NCBI GenBank assembly: GCA_036012755.1
Contig: DASCPX010000027.1
Span: 303,510 to 367,509 of the forward strand
Direction: 5' to 3'
Source of the DNA: Myxococcota bacterium
GTDB lineage: Bacteria > Myxococcota_A > UBA796 > CAJQPC01
DNA length: 64,000 nt
Below, piece by piece: positions 41,938 through 52,736 of this stretch; position 1 is the first letter of the stretch; every line of letters begins with the position of its first letter. The notes under the pieces were generated by a model. The model had not been told where the DNA came from and ran no database searches. It worked only from the letters and a program-made list of their open reading frames with translations. Position numbers and translations under genes: made by a program.

Positions 41938-41959
41938 GGGCCTCTTCGACAGCGCCTGG

Positions 41960-42165
41960 TGAGCCAGCGAGATGCGGGCCAGCGTGCCCTCCATGCCATC
42001 CGCCCTCGAGCCCAGGCTGAGCTCCCCGCCGAGGGCGTCCACGATCGAGCGGGACACCGCGAGACCCAGCCCAGTCCCCTGCCCTGTGTCCAGGGTGGTG
42101 AAGAAGGGCTCGAAGACCCGGTCACGGATCCCCGGGGGAATGCCGGGGCCGTCGGCCAGGGAGAG
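41960..42165 (-). pseudogene. Fragment of a sensor histidine kinase (HATPase_c C-terminal part only)
   Basis: [32 protein letters not shown] (G1, F and G2 boxes); no H- or N-box upstream. Confidence 0.8.
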
Positions 42166-42729
42166 CTCACCTGCGAGACCGACCCCTGCGGCGCTGACGC
42201 GGTCTGCAACGACCTCGACGCTGGCGACTACGAGTGCACCTGCGCGACGGGCTTCTCCGGAGACGGCTTCGACTGCTGCGCTGACGACGACGGCGACGAG
42301 ACCTGCAACGACCTCGACAACTGCGTCTCCGATGCCAACCCCTCCCAGGACGACTTCAACTCCGACGGGACCGGCGACGCCTGCGACTCGATCGTGATCA
42401 TGCTGTCCGACCTCACCACCACCGCGCAGTTCTACGAGTACGAGGCGGTGTCCGCCACGGTCCACTACTTCGCGCTCCTCGACGAAGGCGGCGAGCCACA
42501 CGTCGCAGTCGACGCTTGCGATGTCTGCTACGGAGCCAAGAAAGGCTACCGGCAGGACGGCGACGAGATGGTCTGCAACAACTGCGGCCTCACATTCGAC
42601 ATCGACGGCATCGGCTCCGAGAACCGGACCGGTGGCTGCAACCCCGGCTACATCCCGATCGAGATCACCGCCGAGTCCGTCATCATCGAGCCAGAGGCCC
42701 TCGAGGCCGCGAGCTGGTACTTCGAGTAG
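42166..42729 (+). CDS. 5'-truncated EGF-like + TSP3-like + DUF2318-like Cys-rich protein
   Basis: [78 protein letters not shown]; no credible start before the junction with the kinase fragment. Confidence 0.7.
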
Positions 42730-42732
42730 GTC

Positions 42733-43329
<597 letters not shown>

Positions 43330-43332
43330 GCC

Positions 43333-45423
43333 TCAGTAGCTCTCGCTCGCGCTGCCCCCGTCGCGGTCTCCGAAGTCCCACCCGTAGCGCTCCGCCACTG
43401 CCGCCCCGTAGTCCCTGCGGACCACCGTCGCGGTGACGGTCAGCCCCGCGGTAGAGGGGAAGCGGTGCTCGCTCGTGGCGCTGGAGAAGGCGGCGATGCG
43501 GTTGTCGCTGGCGACGTCGAGGGCCCTGTAGTGGGCCACGCCCCGGCGGCCCTCGCTGTCGACGAGGACCTTTGCGTAGAGCCAACCCGGCGCGCCGGCG
43601 TGGTGCCCCTCGGCGCAGAGGAAGACGACATCGCCGCGACGTGTCTCCGGGGGCTGCGAGGCGAGGATTGCCGAGTCCCCGGTGATGGAGCTCAGCTCGA
43701 CCTCGCCGAGGAACTCGTAGACAGGCAGGCCCTTTTCTGCGGCCGTGGCCTCGGCGAACGAGGTCGTGCCAGGCCCTGAGTAGTCGGTCCACTCCCCGGT
43801 CGGGCGGACGAAGCGGGCGATCAGCGCCCCCTCCAGCTCCTGGCCCGAGAGCTCCAGGTCCAGCTCCGAGACAGACGCGTCAGCGCCGATGGTCCCCATC
43901 GCCAGGTAGCCGCCGACGTCCGGAACGACCTGGCCACCTGTGGCTTCTACCGGCTGTCCGTCAGCGTCCAGGGCGCTCACGAGGACGATGATCTGCCTCA
44001 GCGGCTCCCCGGTCGGCACTGCGTGTGCGGCCCGATTCGTCAGCTCGACCGTCGCGCGGAGCTCGCCATCCTGCTCTTCGAGGGAGAGCAGGAGGTAGGG
44101 ATCGCCGAGGTCATCGGCGCGGGGGAAGTGATGGTGCCGGACCTCTCCCGCCTCGCGCAGCCAGCCCTGGGTGGTCGAGGGGATCTGGCCCCGGTCGACG
44201 ATGTCGTAGGTCGAGCTCGGGAGCTCCAGCGTCGGCATGTGGCAGCCCTGACAGGAGAAGCCGGCCTCTGTGGAGCCCGCCGCTTCGAACTCGGAGAAGG
44301 TCTCCAACACGGGCAGCCCATCGGGCCAGCGTTCGGAGTCCAGCTCCTCGCCGGGTCCCAGCGCCGGCTGGTAGTACTCGTGGCAGGCGGAGCAGAAGCG
44401 CGCCTCGCGGAACAGGGGGTTGTAGCTCCCGTTCATGATCGGCACGACCACGTCGGGGTAGGGGCCGAAGATGATTGGGTCGAACTCCTGGCCGCCGATG
44501 CGCGACTCCTCGCTGGGGCGCTCGAGCTGGATCGCCCCGTCGAGTCCAGGGGCGGGACCGGCGACGACGGAGCGGATCTTGTGGCAGAAGTCGCAGGTGA
44601 CCCCCTCGTGAGCCACTCCGGTCGAGGCGGCGAAGTCGATCGACCCGGGCGTGCCGCCGTCGGTGGCGGGGGTGTGGCAGTCGCCGCAGCTGCCGAAAGC
44701 GGTGAGGGTGTCCCGTCGATCCGGGTGGTCGCAGGCCGGTCCACAGCCCTCGTTCAGCCAAGGAAGCACGCCCTCGCCGAGGTAGCAGTACTCCGCGACG
44801 GTCCCCTCCTCTCCTGGCAGCTGGCCCTCTGCCAGGCTCCCGCCAAGGGCGTCGCAGTCGTCTGTCTCGGAGGCCCGCCCGGTGTAGATGTCCCACACCT
44901 GTGGGTCCGAGGCGGCCTTGGCGTGGGTGGAGTCCGCCCAGTCCCCGGCGATGTCCCAGTGGCAGTGTCCGCAGTAGCTCGTGTCGGGGCTCTTGATGTC
45001 CCCACCCTTCTGGAAGGGGTAGTCGACGTTGTCGACTCCCAGCAACGGCCGCATCGTGATGGTCAGCGGGCCTGTGGGATCCTCCTCGGGCACGGCCACG
45101 GACCCGCTGATCCAGCCCTCCTTGCCGGCCAGCAGGTGACGCTCGGTGATGCCGTCGTCGTCTACCTCCAGGGTAGCCAGACCCTCTGCATCGGTGGTCA
45201 CCCAGCGGTCCTCGGGCCAGCCCCCGACCATGGCCACGGCTCCCTCCACGACAGCGCCGTCGGGGTCCACGACCACCACCGTCGCGGCGCCGGTCCAGCG
45301 CTGCGCCTCGATCTCGCTGTCGTCGACGGAGCTCTCGGCCCGGCTCTCGGTCGAGCTCTCGTCAGGCGCGCTGTCAGCTCCCCGGCCGTTGCAGGCGAGG
45401 CAGAACAAAAGCGGCGTGATCAA
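43333..45423 (-). CDS. Pentaheme c-type cytochrome lipoprotein with beta-sandwich domains
   Basis: CGHCH, CGDCH, CDFCH, CSACH, CQGCH; TTG 45423 (LITPLLFCLAC) overlaps the upstream TGA. Confidence 0.88.
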   Translation of the reverse strand: MITPLLFCLACNGRGADSAPDESSTESRAESSVDDSEIEAQRWTGAATVVVVDPDGAVVEGAVAMVGGWPEDRWVTTDAEGLATLEVDDDGITERHLLAGKEGWISGSVAVPEEDPTGPLTITMRPLLGVDNVDYPFQKGGDIKSPDTSYCGHCHWDIAGDWADSTHAKAASDPQVWDIYTGRASETDDCDALGGSLAEGQLPGEEGTVAEYCYLGEGVLPWLNEGCGPACDHPDRRDTLTAFGSCGDCHTPATDGGTPGSIDFAASTGVAHEGVTCDFCHKIRSVVAGPAPGLDGAIQLERPSEESRIGGQEFDPIIFGPYPDVVVPIMNGSYNPLFREARFCSACHEYYQPALGPGEELDSERWPDGLPVLETFSEFEAAGSTEAGFSCQGCHMPTLELPSSTYDIVDRGQIPSTTQGWLREAGEVRHHHFPRADDLGDPYLLLSLEEQDGELRATVELTNRAAHAVPTGEPLRQIIVLVSALDADGQPVEATGGQVVPDVGGYLAMGTIGADASVSELDLELSGQELEGALIARFVRPTGEWTDYSGPGTTSFAEATAAEKGLPVYEFLGEVELSSITGDSAILASQPPETRRGDVVFLCAEGHHAGAPGWLYAKVLVDSEGRRGVAHYRALDVASDNRIAAFSSATSEHRFPSTAGLTVTATVVRRDYGAAVAERYGWDFGDRDGGSASESY

Positions 45424-46139
45424 GAGCCCGCGTGTTCGGCGATCACGTCCCTGAGCTCCTCGAGCCCGTGGCCGGTCGTGCACTCCAGCATCTCCATCTC
45501 CGGCGACAGGGCGCACTTGCCGGGCAGGCTCCTGCCATCGTAGGGCGTGACGTCCAGCAGCAGGCCCTCGGTGTCCGCCAGGACCGGGAGGTCCGGCGAG
45601 CCGAGCCGCTCGTGGTACTCGGCGGCCATCTCGGGTGGGGGCGGACCGGGATCCATGCCCTCGAAGAGGCCGACGATGTAGCCCATCTCGATGCCGGTCT
45701 CGTCGGTGAAGTCGACGCTGTCTTCATAGAGGCTGACCGCCTCCGTCATGCAGACGCCTCACCAGGCGGCGGTCATGAAGAGGATGTGGTAGCTCCTGGC
45801 GAAGTCCCAGAGGTCCACCTCGTCGCCGCACTGGTCGACGAAGGTGACGTTGTCGACCACGTCACCGACCTCGGCTCCGGTGGAGCTCAGGTCACCGGGA
45901 TCGTCGTGGCGCCAGCCGCAGGCGTAGCACTGCTCGTCGAGGTCCAGCGGGCTGGAGCCGCAGTCGAGCTCGTCGCCGTCGTCGAAGCCGTCGCCGTCGC
46001 TGTCCGCCAGGGTCGGATCCGTGCCGAACTCGTCCTCTTCCATGCAGTCTTCGAGCCCGTCGCCGTCAGCGTCACCGCCGCAGGCTCGGGCGACGTCAGT
46101 GCCGGTACAAGCGAGGCCAAGCAGGAGCAGGGAGTTCAT
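45420..46139 (-). CDS. Selenocysteine-containing thioredoxin-fold lipoprotein (W-U-G-V-C) with DxDxDG repeats
   Basis: ORFs 45759..46139 and 45420..45749 are in the same frame, separated only by TGA 45759-45761 in FMTAAW*GVC; SECIS-like hairpin follows. Confidence 0.85.
45725..45750 (-). promoter_or_regulatory. Putative bacterial SECIS element
   Basis: mRNA UGA-N15-GAGGC-GGUCA-GCCUC; loop starts with G about 21 nt after UGA; stem extendable by CAU/AUG. Confidence 0.7.
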
Positions 46140-46210
46140 GGGCAGTTCCTATCGGACGGCCCAGCCTATCCTCCGAGAGGGTGCCTTCGGTCCGCGGTCT
46201 GCAAACAGCC

Positions 46211-47080
46211 TCAGTCGGAGGGGTCCAGAGCGGCCTCGATGCCCCCTGGGGTGTGGCACGCCTGGCACAGGGCGCCGTCCTCCAGAGGCAGCCTGGACAG
46301 CGCCGAGTCCCCCGCGACCGGAGCCGCGTGGAGGCCGATCGACGGCGACCCCTGCTCCAGGCTCGGAGCCAGGACCTGCTCCAACCAGGACTCGGGGAAG
46401 GGGGACGAGTCGGGGATCTCACGGCTTCGCTGGGTGATCCCGGGGGGATGGGGGTCATGGCAGGTCGAGCAGACCAGCTCGCCCTGGGGAGTCAGCGGCA
46501 GGCCCGCTGCCTTGGCCCGCTCCGCCATCTCCGGCTCCATCGGCCCACGGTGGAGCGCGGATCCCGCGTGGGCCGAGAGCTGGTGGCAGGCCACGCAGAT
46601 CTCGTCGCCCTGGACCGTCGCTGGGGCGCGGCCCGTGTCGGCAGGGACCGGGTCGTGGCAGCCCAGGCAGCGGGTCGGGATCGCCGGGTCCAGCATCGCC
46701 TGGTGGGGGTCGAAGCCCACGCTGGTCAGCTCCACGTGGCAGGCGGCGCAGAAGCCGCGCTCGTTGGGATAGGTCCCCCTGAGCAGGCCGGGGCTGGCCG
46801 CGTCGCCGTGACAGGCGGGCTCGTCGTGGCAGCTCAGGCAGGCCAGCTCGCCATTCACCAGCGGAAAGACCCCTGGGACGGTCGCCGTCTCCGGCTTCAT
46901 CCCGACGGGGTGGGGATCGGCGGCGTGGCAGCTCAGGCAGGTCTCGTCCGCGGAGCCGTGGGTGAAGGAGACCTCCTCCGGGGCGGTCCCGACCGATGCC
47001 TCGGAGTGGCAGGCGGCGCAGCCCTCCGCGTCGCCATGGGGGTTGGCAGAGGCGCTCAGCAGCAGCAGGAGCCCGGTCAC
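46211..47080 (-). CDS. Octaheme c-type cytochrome (periplasmic, doubled-CxxCH-type)
   Basis: 8 CxxCH (CAACH, CLSCH x2, CAACH, CLGCH, CVACH, CSTCH, CQACH), HPVG and CSTCHDPH motifs; GTGA overlap. Confidence 0.9.
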   Translation of the reverse strand: MTGLLLLLSASANPHGDAEGCAACHSEASVGTAPEEVSFTHGSADETCLSCHAADPHPVGMKPETATVPGVFPLVNGELACLSCHDEPACHGDAASPGLLRGTYPNERGFCAACHVELTSVGFDPHQAMLDPAIPTRCLGCHDPVPADTGRAPATVQGDEICVACHQLSAHAGSALHRGPMEPEMAERAKAAGLPLTPQGELVCSTCHDPHPPGITQRSREIPDSSPFPESWLEQVLAPSLEQGSPSIGLHAAPVAGDSALSRLPLEDGALCQACHTPGGIEAALDPSD

Positions 47081-47370
47081 TCGCCCTCTCCCGTGTCGAC
47101 TCGGAGCGCCTCGACGCCGTTGTCTCCATGACATGGCACGCAGGTGGACGGGTCCTCTGGATCCGCCTCGATCTCTTCGACCTCGACCCCGCCGATGCAG
47201 TCCTGGCTGTGGATGTTCCAGGCCTGGTGACACTGGAAGCACTGCTCCTGGCCCCAGCCCACGCCGTGTTCCTCGGCGGTCAGGGTGAGCGCCGCCGGAG
47301 ACCTGGTCAGGTCCCGCGTCCCGGCGCAGGGATCCGGATCGCCGCAGGCGAGCAACAACAGCAGGCTCAC
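47077..47370 (-). CDS. Small diheme cytochrome c lipoprotein
   Basis: MSLLLLLAC, CFQCH, CVPCH. Confidence 0.85.
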   Translation of the reverse strand: MSLLLLLACGDPDPCAGTRDLTRSPAALTLTAEEHGVGWGQEQCFQCHQAWNIHSQDCIGGVEVEEIEADPEDPSTCVPCHGDNGVEALRVDTGEGE

Positions 47371-47951
47371 AGGGCACCTCCATCTGCGTGGCAGGCGACA
47401 CAGTCGGGCTGGAGGTGGCAGGTGCTGCAGGCGGCCGGATCAGCACGGGCCGCGATCCCGTGGATGCTGATCCAGCTGCGGTCGTGCACGTCGAAGGAGA
47501 TGGACTCCTTGTTCTCGTGGCAGTCGATGCACTCGGAGCTCAAGTGGCAGTCCTTGCACTGCAGGAGCCCCATGCGGCTCTGTCCCCCGTGGAGCTCCAG
47601 CCACCCGGCCCCGTGGCTCGCTGGTGGGGCGATCTGCTCGTGGCAGGTCTCGCAGCGCCCCGGGGCCTTGGTCCGCCGGTCGTCCGCCGGGTTGTGGCAG
47701 TAGTGACAGGCCTGCTCGGGCGGTCGGAGGAAGACCTCGTCCACCGCCTGGGGCGAGGCCGGTGTGGGCGCCGCCGCCCCCACCTGGTGACACGCAGTGC
47801 AGGAGAGACCCTCGCGCTTCAGGGCGCGCTCGTGGACCTCGTGGTCGAAGCGATCGAAGATCTGCTCTGAGTGCCCGGACAAGCTCGGGGCCGCGGCCCA
47901 GGCCAAGGGAGGGGCCAGGAGCAGGACCATCGCCGAGCTGCGCCACCTCAT
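47367..47951 (-). CDS. Heptaheme cytochrome c (c3/c7-like N-terminus)
   Basis: Signal peptide, FDHEVH, 7 CxxCH. Confidence 0.9.
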   Translation of the reverse strand: MRWRSSAMVLLLAPPLAWAAAPSLSGHSEQIFDRFDHEVHERALKREGLSCTACHQVGAAAPTPASPQAVDEVFLRPPEQACHYCHNPADDRRTKAPGRCETCHEQIAPPASHGAGWLELHGGQSRMGLLQCKDCHLSSECIDCHENKESISFDVHDRSWISIHGIAARADPAACSTCHLQPDCVACHADGGAL

Positions 47952-49078
47952 GGCAGGCTCACGACGAGGCCGGCGTTGCCTCGCAGATCGAAGCGATGGG
48001 TGGCGTCAGAGGCCGCCTCGACCCCGGCCTGGACGCGAAGCCGTTCCGTGAGCTCTGAGTGGACCTCGAGGCCCCCGGTCAGGACCGTGTCCCAGGGCTC
48101 GTGCAGCTTGCGATAGGGCACGACCGCCGCCGTGGCGTGCAGGCTCCGCGCGTCCGACAGGGACAGGGTCGCCCGCGCGCTCAGGGCGTGGAAGACACCG
48201 CCGGGCCCAGACCGGAAGGCGTAGGCAGGGGCGACGGTCCAGAGCCGAGCCCGTCCCGGCAGCCAGGCAACGTCGACGAGGTGGCCCCACTGACGCACCT
48301 CGTCCTCGGAGTGGGATGTGAGGGCGTAGCTGGTCCACAGGGTCGAGCGCCGAGCGCCTCGAAGACGCACGCTCCCACCGACCTGGTCGACCCCCTCCGG
48401 CGCAAAGGCGGCAGTGATGGCCTCGCCGAAGAGGGAGTCCGGGTCGAGCGCCTCTCTGTGCTGGGCGTGGATCGAGGCCCGCACTCCAGGGGTCAGCGAG
48501 CTCTCCAACGCGACCCGAGCCCACTGGACCGGGGCCTCCGGGCCGGTGACGACCAGCGCCCGGACCCCAGCCCGGTCGCCTCCCAGCCACAGCTCGCCGT
48601 CTGCATGGGGCGAGGACTCCACCCCCGCGAGACCACCGAGGCGGAGCCGGGCCGGTCCCTTCACCACACGAGCCTCGAGCCTCGCCATCGCCTCGCCGTC
48701 GGCGAGGTCGTCCAGGTCATGGTGCCGCGCCAGGCCCCCCCAGCCAGAGAACTGCAGCCCGCCCCTGGTCCAGGACAGCTGGGCCCCGTCCAGGCTCATC
48801 GGGCGCAGAGGTCCCCTCACGAGCTGGCGTCCCACCTCCCAGCTGCCCCATGTGGCCTGGGAGCTGGCGTTGAGCAGGTACAAGTCGGGATCGATCTCGC
48901 CGCTCCAGCTCAGGCCCGCGTAGCCCGACACCGCCACACCGTGGTGCTCGCTGCGCACTCGCAGGTACTCGCTGGCGGGGAGCTGGCGCTGACCGAGGAA
49001 GTCGTGGCGGACCTGGACCACGGTCTCGGACTCGGCGACCGTGGCGGCCGCGGCGGCACTCAGCAACGCCAGCATCAC
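47948..49078 (-). CDS. Predicted outer-membrane beta-barrel (porin of a porin-cytochrome cluster)
   Basis: Signal peptide, Cys-free, alternating amphipathic strands, VGRQ motif; sandwiched between multiheme genes with 4-bp overlaps. Confidence 0.7.
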   Translation of the reverse strand: MMLALLSAAAAATVAESETVVQVRHDFLGQRQLPASEYLRVRSEHHGVAVSGYAGLSWSGEIDPDLYLLNASSQATWGSWEVGRQLVRGPLRPMSLDGAQLSWTRGGLQFSGWGGLARHHDLDDLADGEAMARLEARVVKGPARLRLGGLAGVESSPHADGELWLGGDRAGVRALVVTGPEAPVQWARVALESSLTPGVRASIHAQHREALDPDSLFGEAITAAFAPEGVDQVGGSVRLRGARRSTLWTSYALTSHSEDEVRQWGHLVDVAWLPGRARLWTVAPAYAFRSGPGGVFHALSARATLSLSDARSLHATAAVVPYRKLHEPWDTVLTGGLEVHSELTERLRVQAGVEAASDATHRFDLRGNAGLVVSLP

Positions 49079-49824
49079 TCGGCCCCCCCGTGGCAGGAGG
49101 CCCCGCAGGGGACCTGCTCCGGTCCGTCTCCTGGCTCATGGCAACGCATGCAGACCGCCTCCCCCGAGACCGAGACGCCAGCGATGTGTCCGGACGGCCA
49201 GTCCTCCGAGTGAGGGTAGCTGGAGTGGCAGCGGGCGCACGCGACGCCGGAGATCCCACCGGTCCAGCTGGTGGCGTCGACAGGATCCGTGTGGCAGGCG
49301 ATGCAGTCCTCGGCGCCCTCGGCTCCCTGCTCGCCGTGGGCGCTCTCCCACCCCTCCGCGTGGGGGTACGACTCGTGGCAGGAGCTGCAGCCCACCTCGA
49401 TCGCACCGCCGAGGAGGTCGTCTCCGTGGCACGGGCCGCAGACGACGGCGCTGTCCGGTCGCTTCAGGGCGTAGGCGCCGTGCACCCCGGCCTCGGCCCA
49501 GCCCGCCGCGTGGGGGTAGCTCGCGTGACAGCTGGTGCAGCTCACCTCGCTCCCCTCGGCTTTGTGACAGCCCAGGCAGGTCTTCTGCTGCCCGTGGACC
49601 GAGCCCGCCACCCAGCCCTCGGCGTGGGGGTAGTGCTCGTGGCAGGAGGCGCAGGTGGGAGCCGTCGCCCCCTCGACGTGGCAGTCCAGGCAGGCCGAGG
49701 TGCCGAGCTCCAGGGCCAGGGCGCCGTGGCCTTCGTCGAAGCCCTCCGGGTGTGGGAAGCGGACCTCGCCCACCGGCTGGGGCGCTGGGTCGAGCAGCAC
49801 GCAGGCGAAGAACAGGACGATCAC
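49075..49824 (-). CDS. Decaheme-type cytochrome c lipoprotein built from internal repeats
   Basis: MIVLFFAC; 9 CxxCH plus terminal CGASCH; repeated CxxCHxxYPHxxxW. Confidence 0.9.
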   Translation of the reverse strand: MIVLFFACVLLDPAPQPVGEVRFPHPEGFDEGHGALALELGTSACLDCHVEGATAPTCASCHEHYPHAEGWVAGSVHGQQKTCLGCHKAEGSEVSCTSCHASYPHAAGWAEAGVHGAYALKRPDSAVVCGPCHGDDLLGGAIEVGCSSCHESYPHAEGWESAHGEQGAEGAEDCIACHTDPVDATSWTGGISGVACARCHSSYPHSEDWPSGHIAGVSVSGEAVCMRCHEPGDGPEQVPCGASCHGGAE

Positions 49825-51764
49825 GGGAACAGCCCCTCCCAGGCAGCCTGGAAGGCCTCGTGGGTGCTGCGTTCGCTGGGGTCCCCGGTTGGTCCCCTGA
49901 AGGTGCCGCCGGTCTGCTCGGCCAACCAGGCCCCGTAGGCGTGGCAGTCGGCGCAGGCGTGGGTGGGGTAGTCGCCTGGAGGCAGGGTGTCGGCGCCAGC
50001 CTCGTCGAAGGCCGAGAGCGTCTCCTCCGGCGCCAGCGCCACGAAGAGGTGAGATGACAGGTCACCGGAGCCAGAGAGCTCGTGGAAGCCGACTCGCGCA
50101 GCGGTCTGCGGCATGTGGCAGCCGGTGCAGCGCCCCTCCTCCGTGGGGCCGTCCGGGTCGTAGTCCCCGTGGCCGTCGTGGGCTTCGAGCGCCTCGCCCT
50201 GGAAGTCCGGCACCACGTGGCAGGCCTCGCAGAGCGAGTTGTCAGTCGAGGACGAGCGCAAAGAGCCGTGCTCTCCGGTGCCGTGGACCGTGTGGCAGTC
50301 GAAGCAGGCTAGCGACGCGTGCTTCGAGAGCGCCGCCTCGTCGGACTGCTGGCCCGGAGCCGCGGCAGCCCCAGAGGGCCAGAGGGTCGGGACGGAGCTG
50401 GCGTGGTCTTCGAGCTCCGCGCCCGGCTCGTAGAAGCCGAACTCGGTCGACAGGGGGAAGGGCAGGCCGCTGCCGTGGCCCTCGAGCGCGCCGTGGCACT
50501 GTCCGCAGACTCCGGCGGCGCGTCCGGCGTCGAGCTGGTCCGGACGCGTGATCGTGTCGGCCTTGTCCGGCTCGGAGGCGGCGATGTGGGAGGAGGCGGG
50601 CCCGTGGCAGCGCTCGCAGCCGACGCCGGTCTCGATCCAGCGGTCCCCGGAGCTCGAGCTCATGTCCACGCCGCCCTCGGCGTCCACCTCGAGATCGAAG
50701 CCCGTGGAGTGACAGGCAAAGCAGCCGGCCTCGGCCGAGAGCTCCGCCGCAGGGCTCGTCTCCTCGTCCACGAGGAACTCACCGGCCTCGTCGAACCAGC
50801 GCTCGGCCCGCCAGGCCCGCGGGGCGCTATCGGCCCAGCCCTCACGCTCGCTGTCATCGGGAGTCCAGGCCACCGGCAGGGGCCAGGCCTCATCGCCGAG
50901 CTCCGTGTAGGGGATGCCCGAGGACGAGCCCAGCCAGCCCGCCACCTCGTAGTCCCGGCTCTCGCCGCTGGCCGCTGACAGGCGCACGACGGGGTCCTCT
51001 CCGTCCATCCAGAGGGTGGCGCTGGCTTCGCCGAGCTCCACGACCTCGCCTGACTCGAAGAGCAGCAGGCGATCCTCGCTGGTGGCCTCCTCCAGGGCCT
51101 GGGCGTGGGGGCTGGGACTCCAGTCGCGCAGGATCTCGTAGTGACAGGCGACGCAGTAGCCGGAGCCGACCACCACCGAGTCACTCCGGGGTCGCCCACC
51201 GAGCGTCGCCACCAGCTGGACCGCGCCCTGCTCTGGCACGGTGACGTCCCAGAAGCGCCTCGACCAGTAGCGGTCATCGCTGACCTCCAGGTCGACGATC
51301 TGCCCACCGAGTCCGGGAATCCAGGCCGACCCTGCCTCGTCCGACCAGGCCGCGCTCCCGTCGCTGGCGACCACCAGAGCGCCCTCTACGGGCTCGCCGG
51401 CGGGGTCGAGGACCTCGACAGCCACTCCGCCGTCTGGCGAGATCGCTGGCGACAGGCTGATCTCGAGGTGGCTCCCCACCTCGACCCAGTCGGTGGTCGT
51501 GGCCTCCATGCCCTCGGCGACCGCCCACACCCGGAGCTCGCCTGGGGGCAGCAGGGTGAGCTCGAAGCTGCCGTCGGCTGCCGAGACGGCCTCGTAACCG
51601 TGGGGCTCGCTGGCCAGCTGCGCACCCTCGACCGGCAGACCGGCCTCGTCGGTCACGACCCCACTGAGGGTGGCGAGCTGGTCCCGCGCCGGGTGCACCG
51701 GAGCCTCGTCGCTGTCCCAGCCGACGGTCGGCACCGAGCAGGCCTGGATGAGTCCGAGCAGCAT
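49821..51764 (-). CDS. Octaheme cytochrome c lipoprotein with N-terminal carboxypeptidase-regulatory-like domains
   Basis: MLLGLIQAC; SGVVTDEAGLPVEGA; 8 CxxCH including GVGCERCHGP. Confidence 0.9.
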   Translation of the reverse strand: MLLGLIQACSVPTVGWDSDEAPVHPARDQLATLSGVVTDEAGLPVEGAQLASEPHGYEAVSAADGSFELTLLPPGELRVWAVAEGMEATTTDWVEVGSHLEISLSPAISPDGGVAVEVLDPAGEPVEGALVVASDGSAAWSDEAGSAWIPGLGGQIVDLEVSDDRYWSRRFWDVTVPEQGAVQLVATLGGRPRSDSVVVGSGYCVACHYEILRDWSPSPHAQALEEATSEDRLLLFESGEVVELGEASATLWMDGEDPVVRLSAASGESRDYEVAGWLGSSSGIPYTELGDEAWPLPVAWTPDDSEREGWADSAPRAWRAERWFDEAGEFLVDEETSPAAELSAEAGCFACHSTGFDLEVDAEGGVDMSSSSGDRWIETGVGCERCHGPASSHIAASEPDKADTITRPDQLDAGRAAGVCGQCHGALEGHGSGLPFPLSTEFGFYEPGAELEDHASSVPTLWPSGAAAAPGQQSDEAALSKHASLACFDCHTVHGTGEHGSLRSSSTDNSLCEACHVVPDFQGEALEAHDGHGDYDPDGPTEEGRCTGCHMPQTAARVGFHELSGSGDLSSHLFVALAPEETLSAFDEAGADTLPPGDYPTHACADCHAYGAWLAEQTGGTFRGPTGDPSERSTHEAFQAAWEGLFP

Positions 51765-51848
51765 CGCGCGGGAGCATACTTGCTGAGGGTGGCGTCGCCC
51801 CGCCGGAGTCCTCGATCCGCTACATTGCCACACCTGACCGGAGCGACC

Positions 51849-52736
51849 TTGTACCTGACACTGCTCACAGCCCTGGCAGCCGAAGCTCCGCCCATCGTCG
51901 GCGGAGAGAGGACCGGCGACTACCCGGCGGTGCTCCTGCTCTGGACCGGCGACGCCACCTGCACCGGCACGCTCGTGGCTCCCAATTGGCTCGTCACCGC
52001 TGCCCACTGCGTGAAGGGTGGCGACCCGGACAAGATGAGCGTGCACGTGGGCAAGAGGCCCTTCGCCGGCTCCGAGGAGGCCTCCAGCGACGTCACGGAG
52101 CTCTTCGCCCACCCCGACTACCGGTCCAACATGAGCAAGGGCATGGACGTCGGGCTGGTCCACCTCGCCACTCCGCTGGAGTCGGTCGTCCCCATGCCGC
52201 TCACGAGGGCCACCATCGACAACAGCTGGGAGGGCCGCGACGTCCGGTACGTCGGCTACGGCGTCACCTCGGAGACCGCCAACGACTCGGGGGTGAAGCG
52301 CACGGTGGTCGTGCCCTTCTACCAGCTCGACGAGCACTGGATGTACACCTACGACCCTGGCCACAACATGTGCTGGGGAGACTCGGGCGGACCGGCCTTC
52401 GTCGAAGAGGACGGCGAGCTCGCCGTCGCCGGGATCATCTCCTGGGTGGGCAGCTGGGACGACGAGGATCGGCCCTGCTCCACCGGCTGGGGCAGCTCCA
52501 CCCGCATCGACACGGTGCGGGACTGGATCGACGGCTACGTCACGGTCCGCTACGCAGAGGACACCGGCTCCGCCGAGCCCTGGGACACGGCGCCTCCACC
52601 ACAGGACAGCGATCCGGTCGTGGAGCCGAAGGGCCCACCGGATGACAAGGGCGGCATCTGCGGCACCCTGCCCGGAGCAGGCAGCGCCATGCTCGGGCTG
52701 CTCCTGCTCGCCGGGGCCCGGCGTCGCCGGGGCTGA
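51849..52736 (+). CDS. Trypsin-like S1 serine protease with MYXO-CTERM-like tail
   Basis: IVGG, CTGTL, TAAHC, DVGL, GDSGGP; C-terminal GGICG..LLLLAGARRRR. Confidence 0.9.
   Translation: MYLTLLTALAAEAPPIVGGERTGDYPAVLLLWTGDATCTGTLVAPNWLVTAAHCVKGGDPDKMSVHVGKRPFAGSEEASSDVTELFAHPDYRSNMSKGMDVGLVHLATPLESVVPMPLTRATIDNSWEGRDVRYVGYGVTSETANDSGVKRTVVVPFYQLDEHWMYTYDPGHNMCWGDSGGPAFVEEDGELAVAGIISWVGSWDDEDRPCSTGWGSSTRIDTVRDWIDGYVTVRYAEDTGSAEPWDTAPPPQDSDPVVEPKGPPDDKGGICGTLPGAGSAMLGLLLLAGARRRRG

Follow-up and report, generated by a model that had tools for sequence, protein, structure and literature searches.

A 64,000-nt stretch of contig DASCPX010000027.1 from a Myxococcota bacterium (assembly GCA_036012755.1), referred to here as the window, carries on its minus strand a gene for a thioredoxin-fold protein of the TlpA/ResA type, the reading frame of which contains a TGA codon at the catalytic position, followed directly by a gene for a pentaheme cytochrome. 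The TGA codon almost certainly encodes selenocysteine (Sec, U), judging from the homologous sites and the hairpin that follows it, and the pairing of the two genes recurs at related loci. The features of the locus, all on the minus strand, are as follows.

45420 to 46139: gene for a 239-amino-acid UxxC TlpA/ResA-like selenoprotein, a predicted lipoprotein (translation, homologues, fold)
46107 to 46139: predicted signal peptide of very short length, lipobox Cys at residue 11 (111 of 120 homologues have a lipobox-like Cys)
45942 to 46073: bacterial TSP3 (DxDxDG) repeats, residues about 23 to 66 (PF18884)
45750 to 45761: U-G-V-C redox motif, Sec127 and Cys130, with conserved Glu133 after it (60 aligned proteins)
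45759 to 45761: in-frame TGA read as Sec127
45728 to 45744: apical hairpin of the Sec insertion sequence (SECIS), 6-bp stem and 5-nt loop, in which the G at 45737 is invariant (folding, covariation)
45522 to 45524: Pro206, aligned to the ResA cis-proline position
43333 to 45423: partner gene, a 696-amino-acid predicted lipoprotein with five CxxCH motifs and a pentaheme cytochrome (PHC)/c552/MccSep-like layout
46211 to 51767: upstream cluster, five multiheme cytochrome genes with one gene for a putative beta-barrel, outside the conserved module

The recoded codon and its hairpin

Read from the ATG at 46139, the frame contains one internal stop, codon 127, a TGA at 45761-45759 in the context M-T-A-A-W-(stop)-G-V-C. 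It occupies the place of the first Cys of a WCxxC motif, as the earlier note on this DNA had recognized, and the frame continues for 112 open codons, the length given there, to a terminating TGA at 45422-45420. An in-frame TAG lies four codons upstream of the ATG, so that the start is fixed and the signal peptide cannot be much longer, and AGGA is located 7 nt before the ATG. Among the best 120 of 234 homologous matches, analysed as protein records, 59 are full length with WCxxC and 61 are short. Of the short records, 60 terminate on the Trp preceding the catalytic position, a systematic annotation error by which about half of the best database matches (60/120) are truncated at the Sec codon and which is corrected here. 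At the DNA level, 72 loci covering the site were reduced to 56 distinct close sites by removal of duplicates and of those below 40% identity; TGA is found at 45 of them and TGC at 11, so that Cys homologues of the UGA position exist both in DNA and among the full-length proteins. Forty of the 44 TGA sites listed stay open for 112-120 more codons and four run off the contig. In a separate assembly (L028), which differs from the window gene at 2 of 720 nt, the TGA is kept. Together with the 45 of 56 sites, this indicates that the TGA is neither a sequencing error nor a recent nonsense change, two of the outcomes that the earlier note had named as fatal to its reading. A quick tree computed with the site masked needs six Sec/Cys changes, at least two of which are forced by well-supported branches.

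The predicted SECIS hairpin spans 15-31 nt after the TGA, and its loop starts with GG at 45738-45737, 21 nt after the TGA, in accordance with the G-led loop and SECIS geometry proposed earlier. The 50 nt from the TGA fold with -21.9 kcal/mol (z -3.05; 0/200 shuffles as good), and the mean folding energy of a fixed hairpin window is -11.1 kcal/mol for 44 TGA sites versus -3.8 kcal/mol for the 11 TGC sites. When stem pairing was scored on the structure derived from the window's own sequence, with related rows that are not independent of each other, the 6-bp stem was paired in 96.9% of cells in the 43 distinct TGA rows (0/500 shuffles as high) and in 57.6%, the shuffle level, in the TGC rows; the hairpin is thus retained only in the TGA forms. 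The TGA rows show 15 compensatory two-sided changes, all at one stem pair, and an invariant loop G. Bacterial SECIS elements are described in the excerpted text of PMC1088965 as carrying a G within their small apical loop. The genes for SelD and two other candidate selenoproteins of the genome have a similar GGUC loop sequence. For sequences of a single protein family, such a contrast in pairing between TGA and TGC forms would be hard to explain by anything other than a SECIS element.

The source genome (G000; 6.7 Mb, 96% complete) encodes SelA (E 1.3e-122), SelB (291 bits over 242), SelD (340 bits; the gene has an in-frame TGA of its own) and a tRNA-Sec (62.7 bits, anticodon TCA), and the Sec machinery that had been left to be looked for is therefore present. 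Co-occurrence with SelA was dropped as evidence for Sec after a background control, in which SelA was found in 39 of 40 other carriers of the selenoprotein gene and likewise in 134 of the 151 genomes analysed from the order; being frequent across the order, SelA allows the Sec reading without discriminating. This lack of discrimination could be taken to favour the readings in which the TGA is a genuine stop, in a pseudogene, a split gene or through a sequencing error, or stands for another residue. Such explanations are, however, very improbable and effectively refuted, because an identical TGA occupies the catalytic Cys codon at most homologous sites, with a long open frame after it wherever the contig allows, because the downstream hairpin is specific to the TGA forms, and because the sole tRNA with a TCA anticodon is tRNA-Sec, the single tRNA-Trp reads CCA and the gene's own terminator is TGA.

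Architecture of the selenoprotein and its pentaheme partner

The lipobox Cys11 of the selenoprotein follows just 10 residues without a basic N-region. Five Lgt and two LspA genes are encoded in the genome, and the protein is likely lipid-anchored outside the cytoplasm, as predicted from its N-terminus. In the same genome, 399 open reading frames start with an ultra-short hydrophobic signal that has its lipobox Cys between positions 7 and 13 and, in most cases, no basic N-region, versus 24-28 for Tyr/His and 125-148 for the commoner Thr/Ser as controls. The DxDxDG repeats pointed out earlier match Pfam TSP3_bac at 25.6 bits (cut-off 25), their Asp/Gly columns are at least 90% conserved in the 60 aligned proteins, and calcium binding may be predicted for them from the family. 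In the same alignment, C11, C60, C71, C74, C104, W126, C127 (the Sec site) and C130 are invariant, and conservation reaches at least 90% at C32, E133, P206, C209 and C220; the extra conserved cysteines probably form structural disulfides.

The Pfam families AhpC-TSA and Redoxin match the selenoprotein below their cut-offs. In a scan of NCBIfam r20, no selenoprotein model matched at E 0.01, no ResA/DsbE model was hit and weak repeat matches alone were obtained. The structure model, with a predicted local distance difference test (pLDDT) score of 93.3 and a predicted template modelling (TM) score of 0.84, is closest to ResA (3c73, E 1.1e-7; TM by target 0.74) and pneumococcal Etrx2. By profile comparison, ResA is also the best solved relative (E 2.3e-8), with the Etrx lipoproteins ranking beside it. 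The model shows a thioredoxin fold with the N-terminal hairpin and the insertion that mark TlpA/ResA proteins, and the corresponding motif set, U127-x-x-C130, E133 and P206, is present in the alignment. A Glu at this place after the motif is typical of reducing extracytoplasmic thiol:disulfide oxidoreductases, and it does not set the substrate, according to the excerpted text of PMC2665060. The selenoprotein resembles Bacillus ResA/StoA, pneumococcal Etrx1/2 and CcmG in fold, in the Glu three residues after the second Cys, in the cis-Pro position and in the predicted extracytoplasmic anchor. It differs from them in that Sec replaces the attacking Cys, in an identity of about 20% and in a gene position outside a ccm or res locus.

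The match to known UxxC thioredoxin-like selenoproteins, also noticed earlier, agrees with the classes given in the available part of PMC13188914, namely Prx-like thiol:disulfide oxidoreductase (PF00578), thiol-disulfide isomerase-like (cd02966) and Redoxin (PF08534). Shared with these proteins are the UxxC motif, the TlpA-type fold, a SECIS directly after the UGA with a loop G, and the Cys homologues, whereas the protein's own lipobox and TSP3 repeats, several extra invariant Cys and the fixed pentaheme pairing set it apart. An exported, lipid-anchored Sec enzyme had been considered unusual, a view that does not hold here, as this genome contains another three UxxC TlpA-like genes whose products begin with a lipobox-like sequence. 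These genes (C9:99274, plus strand; C137:129117, minus strand; C228:44707, plus strand) have an in-frame TGA and a downstream hairpin, and two of them encode the UxxC domain behind repeat-rich domains of about 450-530 amino acids. Further selenoprotein candidates with hairpins occur at C70:137246 (plus strand; CxxU motif) and C135:2965 (minus strand; CGU motif), which from their motifs we take to be AhpD-like and UshA-like, respectively. Periplasmic selenoenzymes are already known, MccSep being an example. The selenoprotein family and its pentaheme pairing were not found in the literature searched, although BSepDB, as far as the partial text of PMC13326102 goes, may hold members under a generic name. 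The protein encoded in the window is a real selenoprotein of a known class, the exported UxxC TlpA selenoproteins, and its pairing with a pentaheme cytochrome is the apparently new element.

The inferred TTG start of the partner gene overlaps the TGA stop of the selenoprotein gene (TTGA). The partner contains an N-terminal carboxypeptidase-regulatory-like domain, an immunoglobulin (Ig)-like stem and four extra conserved Cys. Its profile matches the penta-heme cytochrome c552 5ZE8 (E 1.4e-14), and its structure model superimposes on 5ZE8 with Z 12.6 and a root-mean-square deviation of 2.5 over 150 residues, in the stem region only. The model is weak (mean pLDDT 62.6), with residues 243-439 of the heme domain mostly below 50, and was therefore not used for ligand geometry, the equivalence of the heme-2 ligand being that of a sequence alignment; low-probability matches to pore toxins (0.07-0.28) were treated as noise. 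The structures 5ZE8 and ExtKL and the PHCs of cable bacteria form one structural family, as stated in the excerpted PMC11976967, and MccSep/ExtKL is described in the portion available of bioRxiv 10.1101/2025.11.18.688581 as a polysulfide reductase requiring a stem Sec and a Cys ligand on heme 2. A Sec-type MccSep/ExtKL member, L167 (G381:C8:55677-56924), was found in one of 301 sampled genomes of the phylum and is a true member of NF040886.

The partner is collinear with L167 over all five hemes, and the Sec of L167 falls on Glu473. At this site, all 42 rows covering it have E, H or D, without Cys or Sec. No Cys is present in the aligned stretch 362-378 of the partner, which has no counterpart to the ligand-region Cys of L167; none of the 43 aligned partners has Cys or Sec at the ligand site either, and a Cys occurs at position 379 in 5 of them. 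In the subclade of the window, the 5ZE8 Cys is replaced by a non-ligating residue (L, F, N or I). The partner thus shares with MccSep/ExtKL and the penta-heme c552 of T. tepidum (5ZE8) the order of the five CxxCH motifs and the Ig-like stem, and with MccSep the loop that carries Sec there. It is unlike MccSep in the Glu/His/Asp at the Sec site, the missing heme-2 Cys ligand, a score of 29 bits versus a cut-off of 250, the extra N-terminal domain, the four extra Cys and the lipobox, and in that Sec resides on a separate neighbouring protein. Membership in MccSep was ruled out for lack of a Sec or Cys at the stem site and of the heme-2 Cys, and the partner is, by sequence, MccSep-like in layout and not a member of that family. 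In a same-genus genome (L085; G073:C351 near 77220), the pentaheme was matched in two pieces, which suggests that a frameshift, or an error of assembly, lies around residues 421-451.

Conservation of the gene pair

The pairing was counted over every one of the 50 matches that the 151 genomes of the order gave and over nine from other orders, comprising 46 Sec and 13 Cys loci; the Sec/Cys state of six loci (L096, L097, L098, L131, L155 and L165) was assigned by hand. Of the 46 Sec loci, 28 have the pentaheme gene within 4.5 kb on the same strand, one has it convergent, six lie at a contig edge and 11 are without it, six of these being distant paralogues. Accordingly, the pentaheme is adjacent at 29 of 40 uncensored Sec loci versus 2 of 11 uncensored Cys loci, two Cys loci being censored. 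Outside the order, 8 of 9 loci have an adjacent pentaheme, and there the module normally consists of the two genes alone, amid unrelated neighbours. At one of the 11 Sec loci without it in that range (G036), the pentaheme gene is 13 kb away, with CusA and CopA genes between. Among the Cys forms, 6 of 13 adjoin an MbnH-like diheme gene, and in one clade an SO2930-like diheme gene is inserted between the selenoprotein and pentaheme genes; every recurring neighbour of the selenoprotein gene encodes a c-type cytochrome. For both proteins, three copies within family f1 resemble family f6 more closely than they do the window copy (62-65% versus 46-49%; 55% versus 34-36%), and the distances of the two proteins are correlated over 31 pairs (Mantel rho 0.41), a value confounded by kinship. 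As their sequences indicate, the two genes share a history even against the species grouping.

The link holds in one direction: the pentaheme gene is present in 100 of 151 genomes of the order versus 41 with this TlpA. At 20 hand-picked pentaheme loci without an adjacent match, no TlpA-like neighbour was found (0/20), and a multicopper oxidase gene lies directly downstream at 14. In a quick tree, the oxidase-linked pentahemes group in a single clade, and those linked to Sec forms fall into three further clades. Strict mutual exclusion of the Sec-TlpA and the multicopper oxidase was rejected, since they co-occur in L101, L157 and L158, as the oxidase does with Cys forms in L095 and L096. The pair of pentaheme and multicopper oxidase (L106-L116, L120-L122) is itself conserved and apparently undescribed, sometimes with MbnH-like, CopA or CusA genes near it.

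The earlier note had placed the gene in a multiheme operon. This stands for the single downstream pentaheme gene, a conserved partner, and fails for the upstream cluster, which recurs in 2 of 45 other long loci, one in an almost identical assembly and one, on the opposite strand, in a genome of the same genus; the whole cluster was therefore ruled out as functional context. Its proteins have 8, 9, 7, 2 and 8 CxxCH motifs around a 376-amino-acid possible beta-barrel, for which no Pfam or NCBIfam match was obtained, and in the same-genus locus (L085) this putative porin-cytochrome cluster is rearranged. A scan of 42000-52500 for promoters and terminators gave nothing. On the other side of the partner gene, a convergent gene (42733-43329, plus strand) encodes a thioredoxin-fold lipoprotein with a Cys motif, which matches NF053656, 'TUGYCR motif thioredoxin fold (seleno)protein', at E 3e-14 but below its cut-off; an FtrD-like gene (41959-42729) adjoins it.

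Possible functions of the pair

The function proposed for the selenoprotein, held at about even probability, is that of a DsbD-fed reductase dedicated to the adjacent pentaheme cytochrome. This reading is favoured by the recurring neighbours being c-type cytochromes throughout and the closest solved relative a maturation reductase, and also from the conserved Glu133 of reducing oxidoreductases, a DsbD-like gene in the genome and the co-inheritance with the pentaheme. Electrons would pass from cytoplasmic thioredoxin through the genome's DsbD to the selenoprotein. Sec127 may then attack disulfides of the partner, formed either by the ten heme-binding Cys before heme attachment or by the four extra conserved Cys, and Cys130 could resolve the mixed bond left by this attack. 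As a result, the pentaheme and any co-encoded diheme would be kept assembly-ready or active in the oxidising envelope. Several observations weigh against such a dedicated reductase. A separate CcmG/DsbE-like gene lies beside ccmF in the genome. The excess of pentaheme over TlpA genes in the order, together with the 20 loci devoid of a TlpA neighbour, implies that maturation proceeds without this gene in places. The ResA-type Glu does not set specificity, 11 Sec loci are without a pentaheme within 4.5 kb, and simple maturation fails to explain why pentaheme linkage tracks Sec (29/40) and not Cys (2/11).

The preference of the Sec forms for the pentaheme, and the absence of Sec from the MccSep-like partner, motivate an alternative that is plausible but unlikely: a split MccSep-like enzyme in which the pentaheme gathers electrons and the docked Sec-thioredoxin provides the selenolate in trans. 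Such an enzyme would reduce disulfide, selenium or peroxide substrates at the cell surface, or link heme and thiol pools. The collinearity with L167, the Sec of which coincides with Glu473, agrees with this, as does the finding that 0 of 43 aligned partners have Cys or Sec at that stem site; yet Glu473 is also carried by pentahemes without any Sec neighbour. With the non-ligating residue of the window's subclade in place of the 5ZE8 Cys, heme 2 could be left open, but MccSep, according to the bioRxiv excerpt (10.1101/2025.11.18.688581), needs a heme-ligating Cys too, and the partner is without Cys in the aligned stretch. Most Sec-linked loci are without the multicopper oxidase encoded directly downstream of the pentaheme at 14 of the 20 other loci; the oxidase is nevertheless present at three Sec loci and two Cys loci. 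That the pair is a two-protein counterpart of MccSep in Myxococcota, which would couple heme electron transfer directly to thiol/selenol chemistry beyond the cytoplasm, with the pentaheme of sister lineages having a multicopper oxidase as its partner instead, is likewise a tentative suggestion of low probability.

TlpA has a role in the assembly of copper centres. A further alternative, regarded as rather improbable, is that the selenoprotein acts as an envelope reductant in copper or oxidative stress (Scs-, TlpA- or Etrx-like), keeping metal-binding thiols or Msr-type enzymes reduced, with the pentaheme as a member of a copper-linked gene set and not a substrate. Multicopper oxidases and MbnH-like dihemes at related loci, the CusA and CopA genes of G036 and the ranking of the Etrx lipoproteins beside ResA are consistent with such a function. 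However, no multicopper oxidase was found in this genome (96% complete), the module in other orders is usually bare, and no Msr or Sco neighbour recurs.

For the dedicated reductase, if true, the pair would represent a Sec-dependent step of cytochrome c assembly, a step not found in the literature searched. The pairing supplies the function-bearing context that is wanting for most predicted UxxC selenoproteins, and it brings into view a pentaheme lipoprotein that is encoded in 100 of 151 genomes of the order, has yet to be characterised and is a relative of MccSep, a sulfur reductase described only recently. If Sec were provided in trans, the pair would constitute a new way to couple heme chains with disulfide chemistry.

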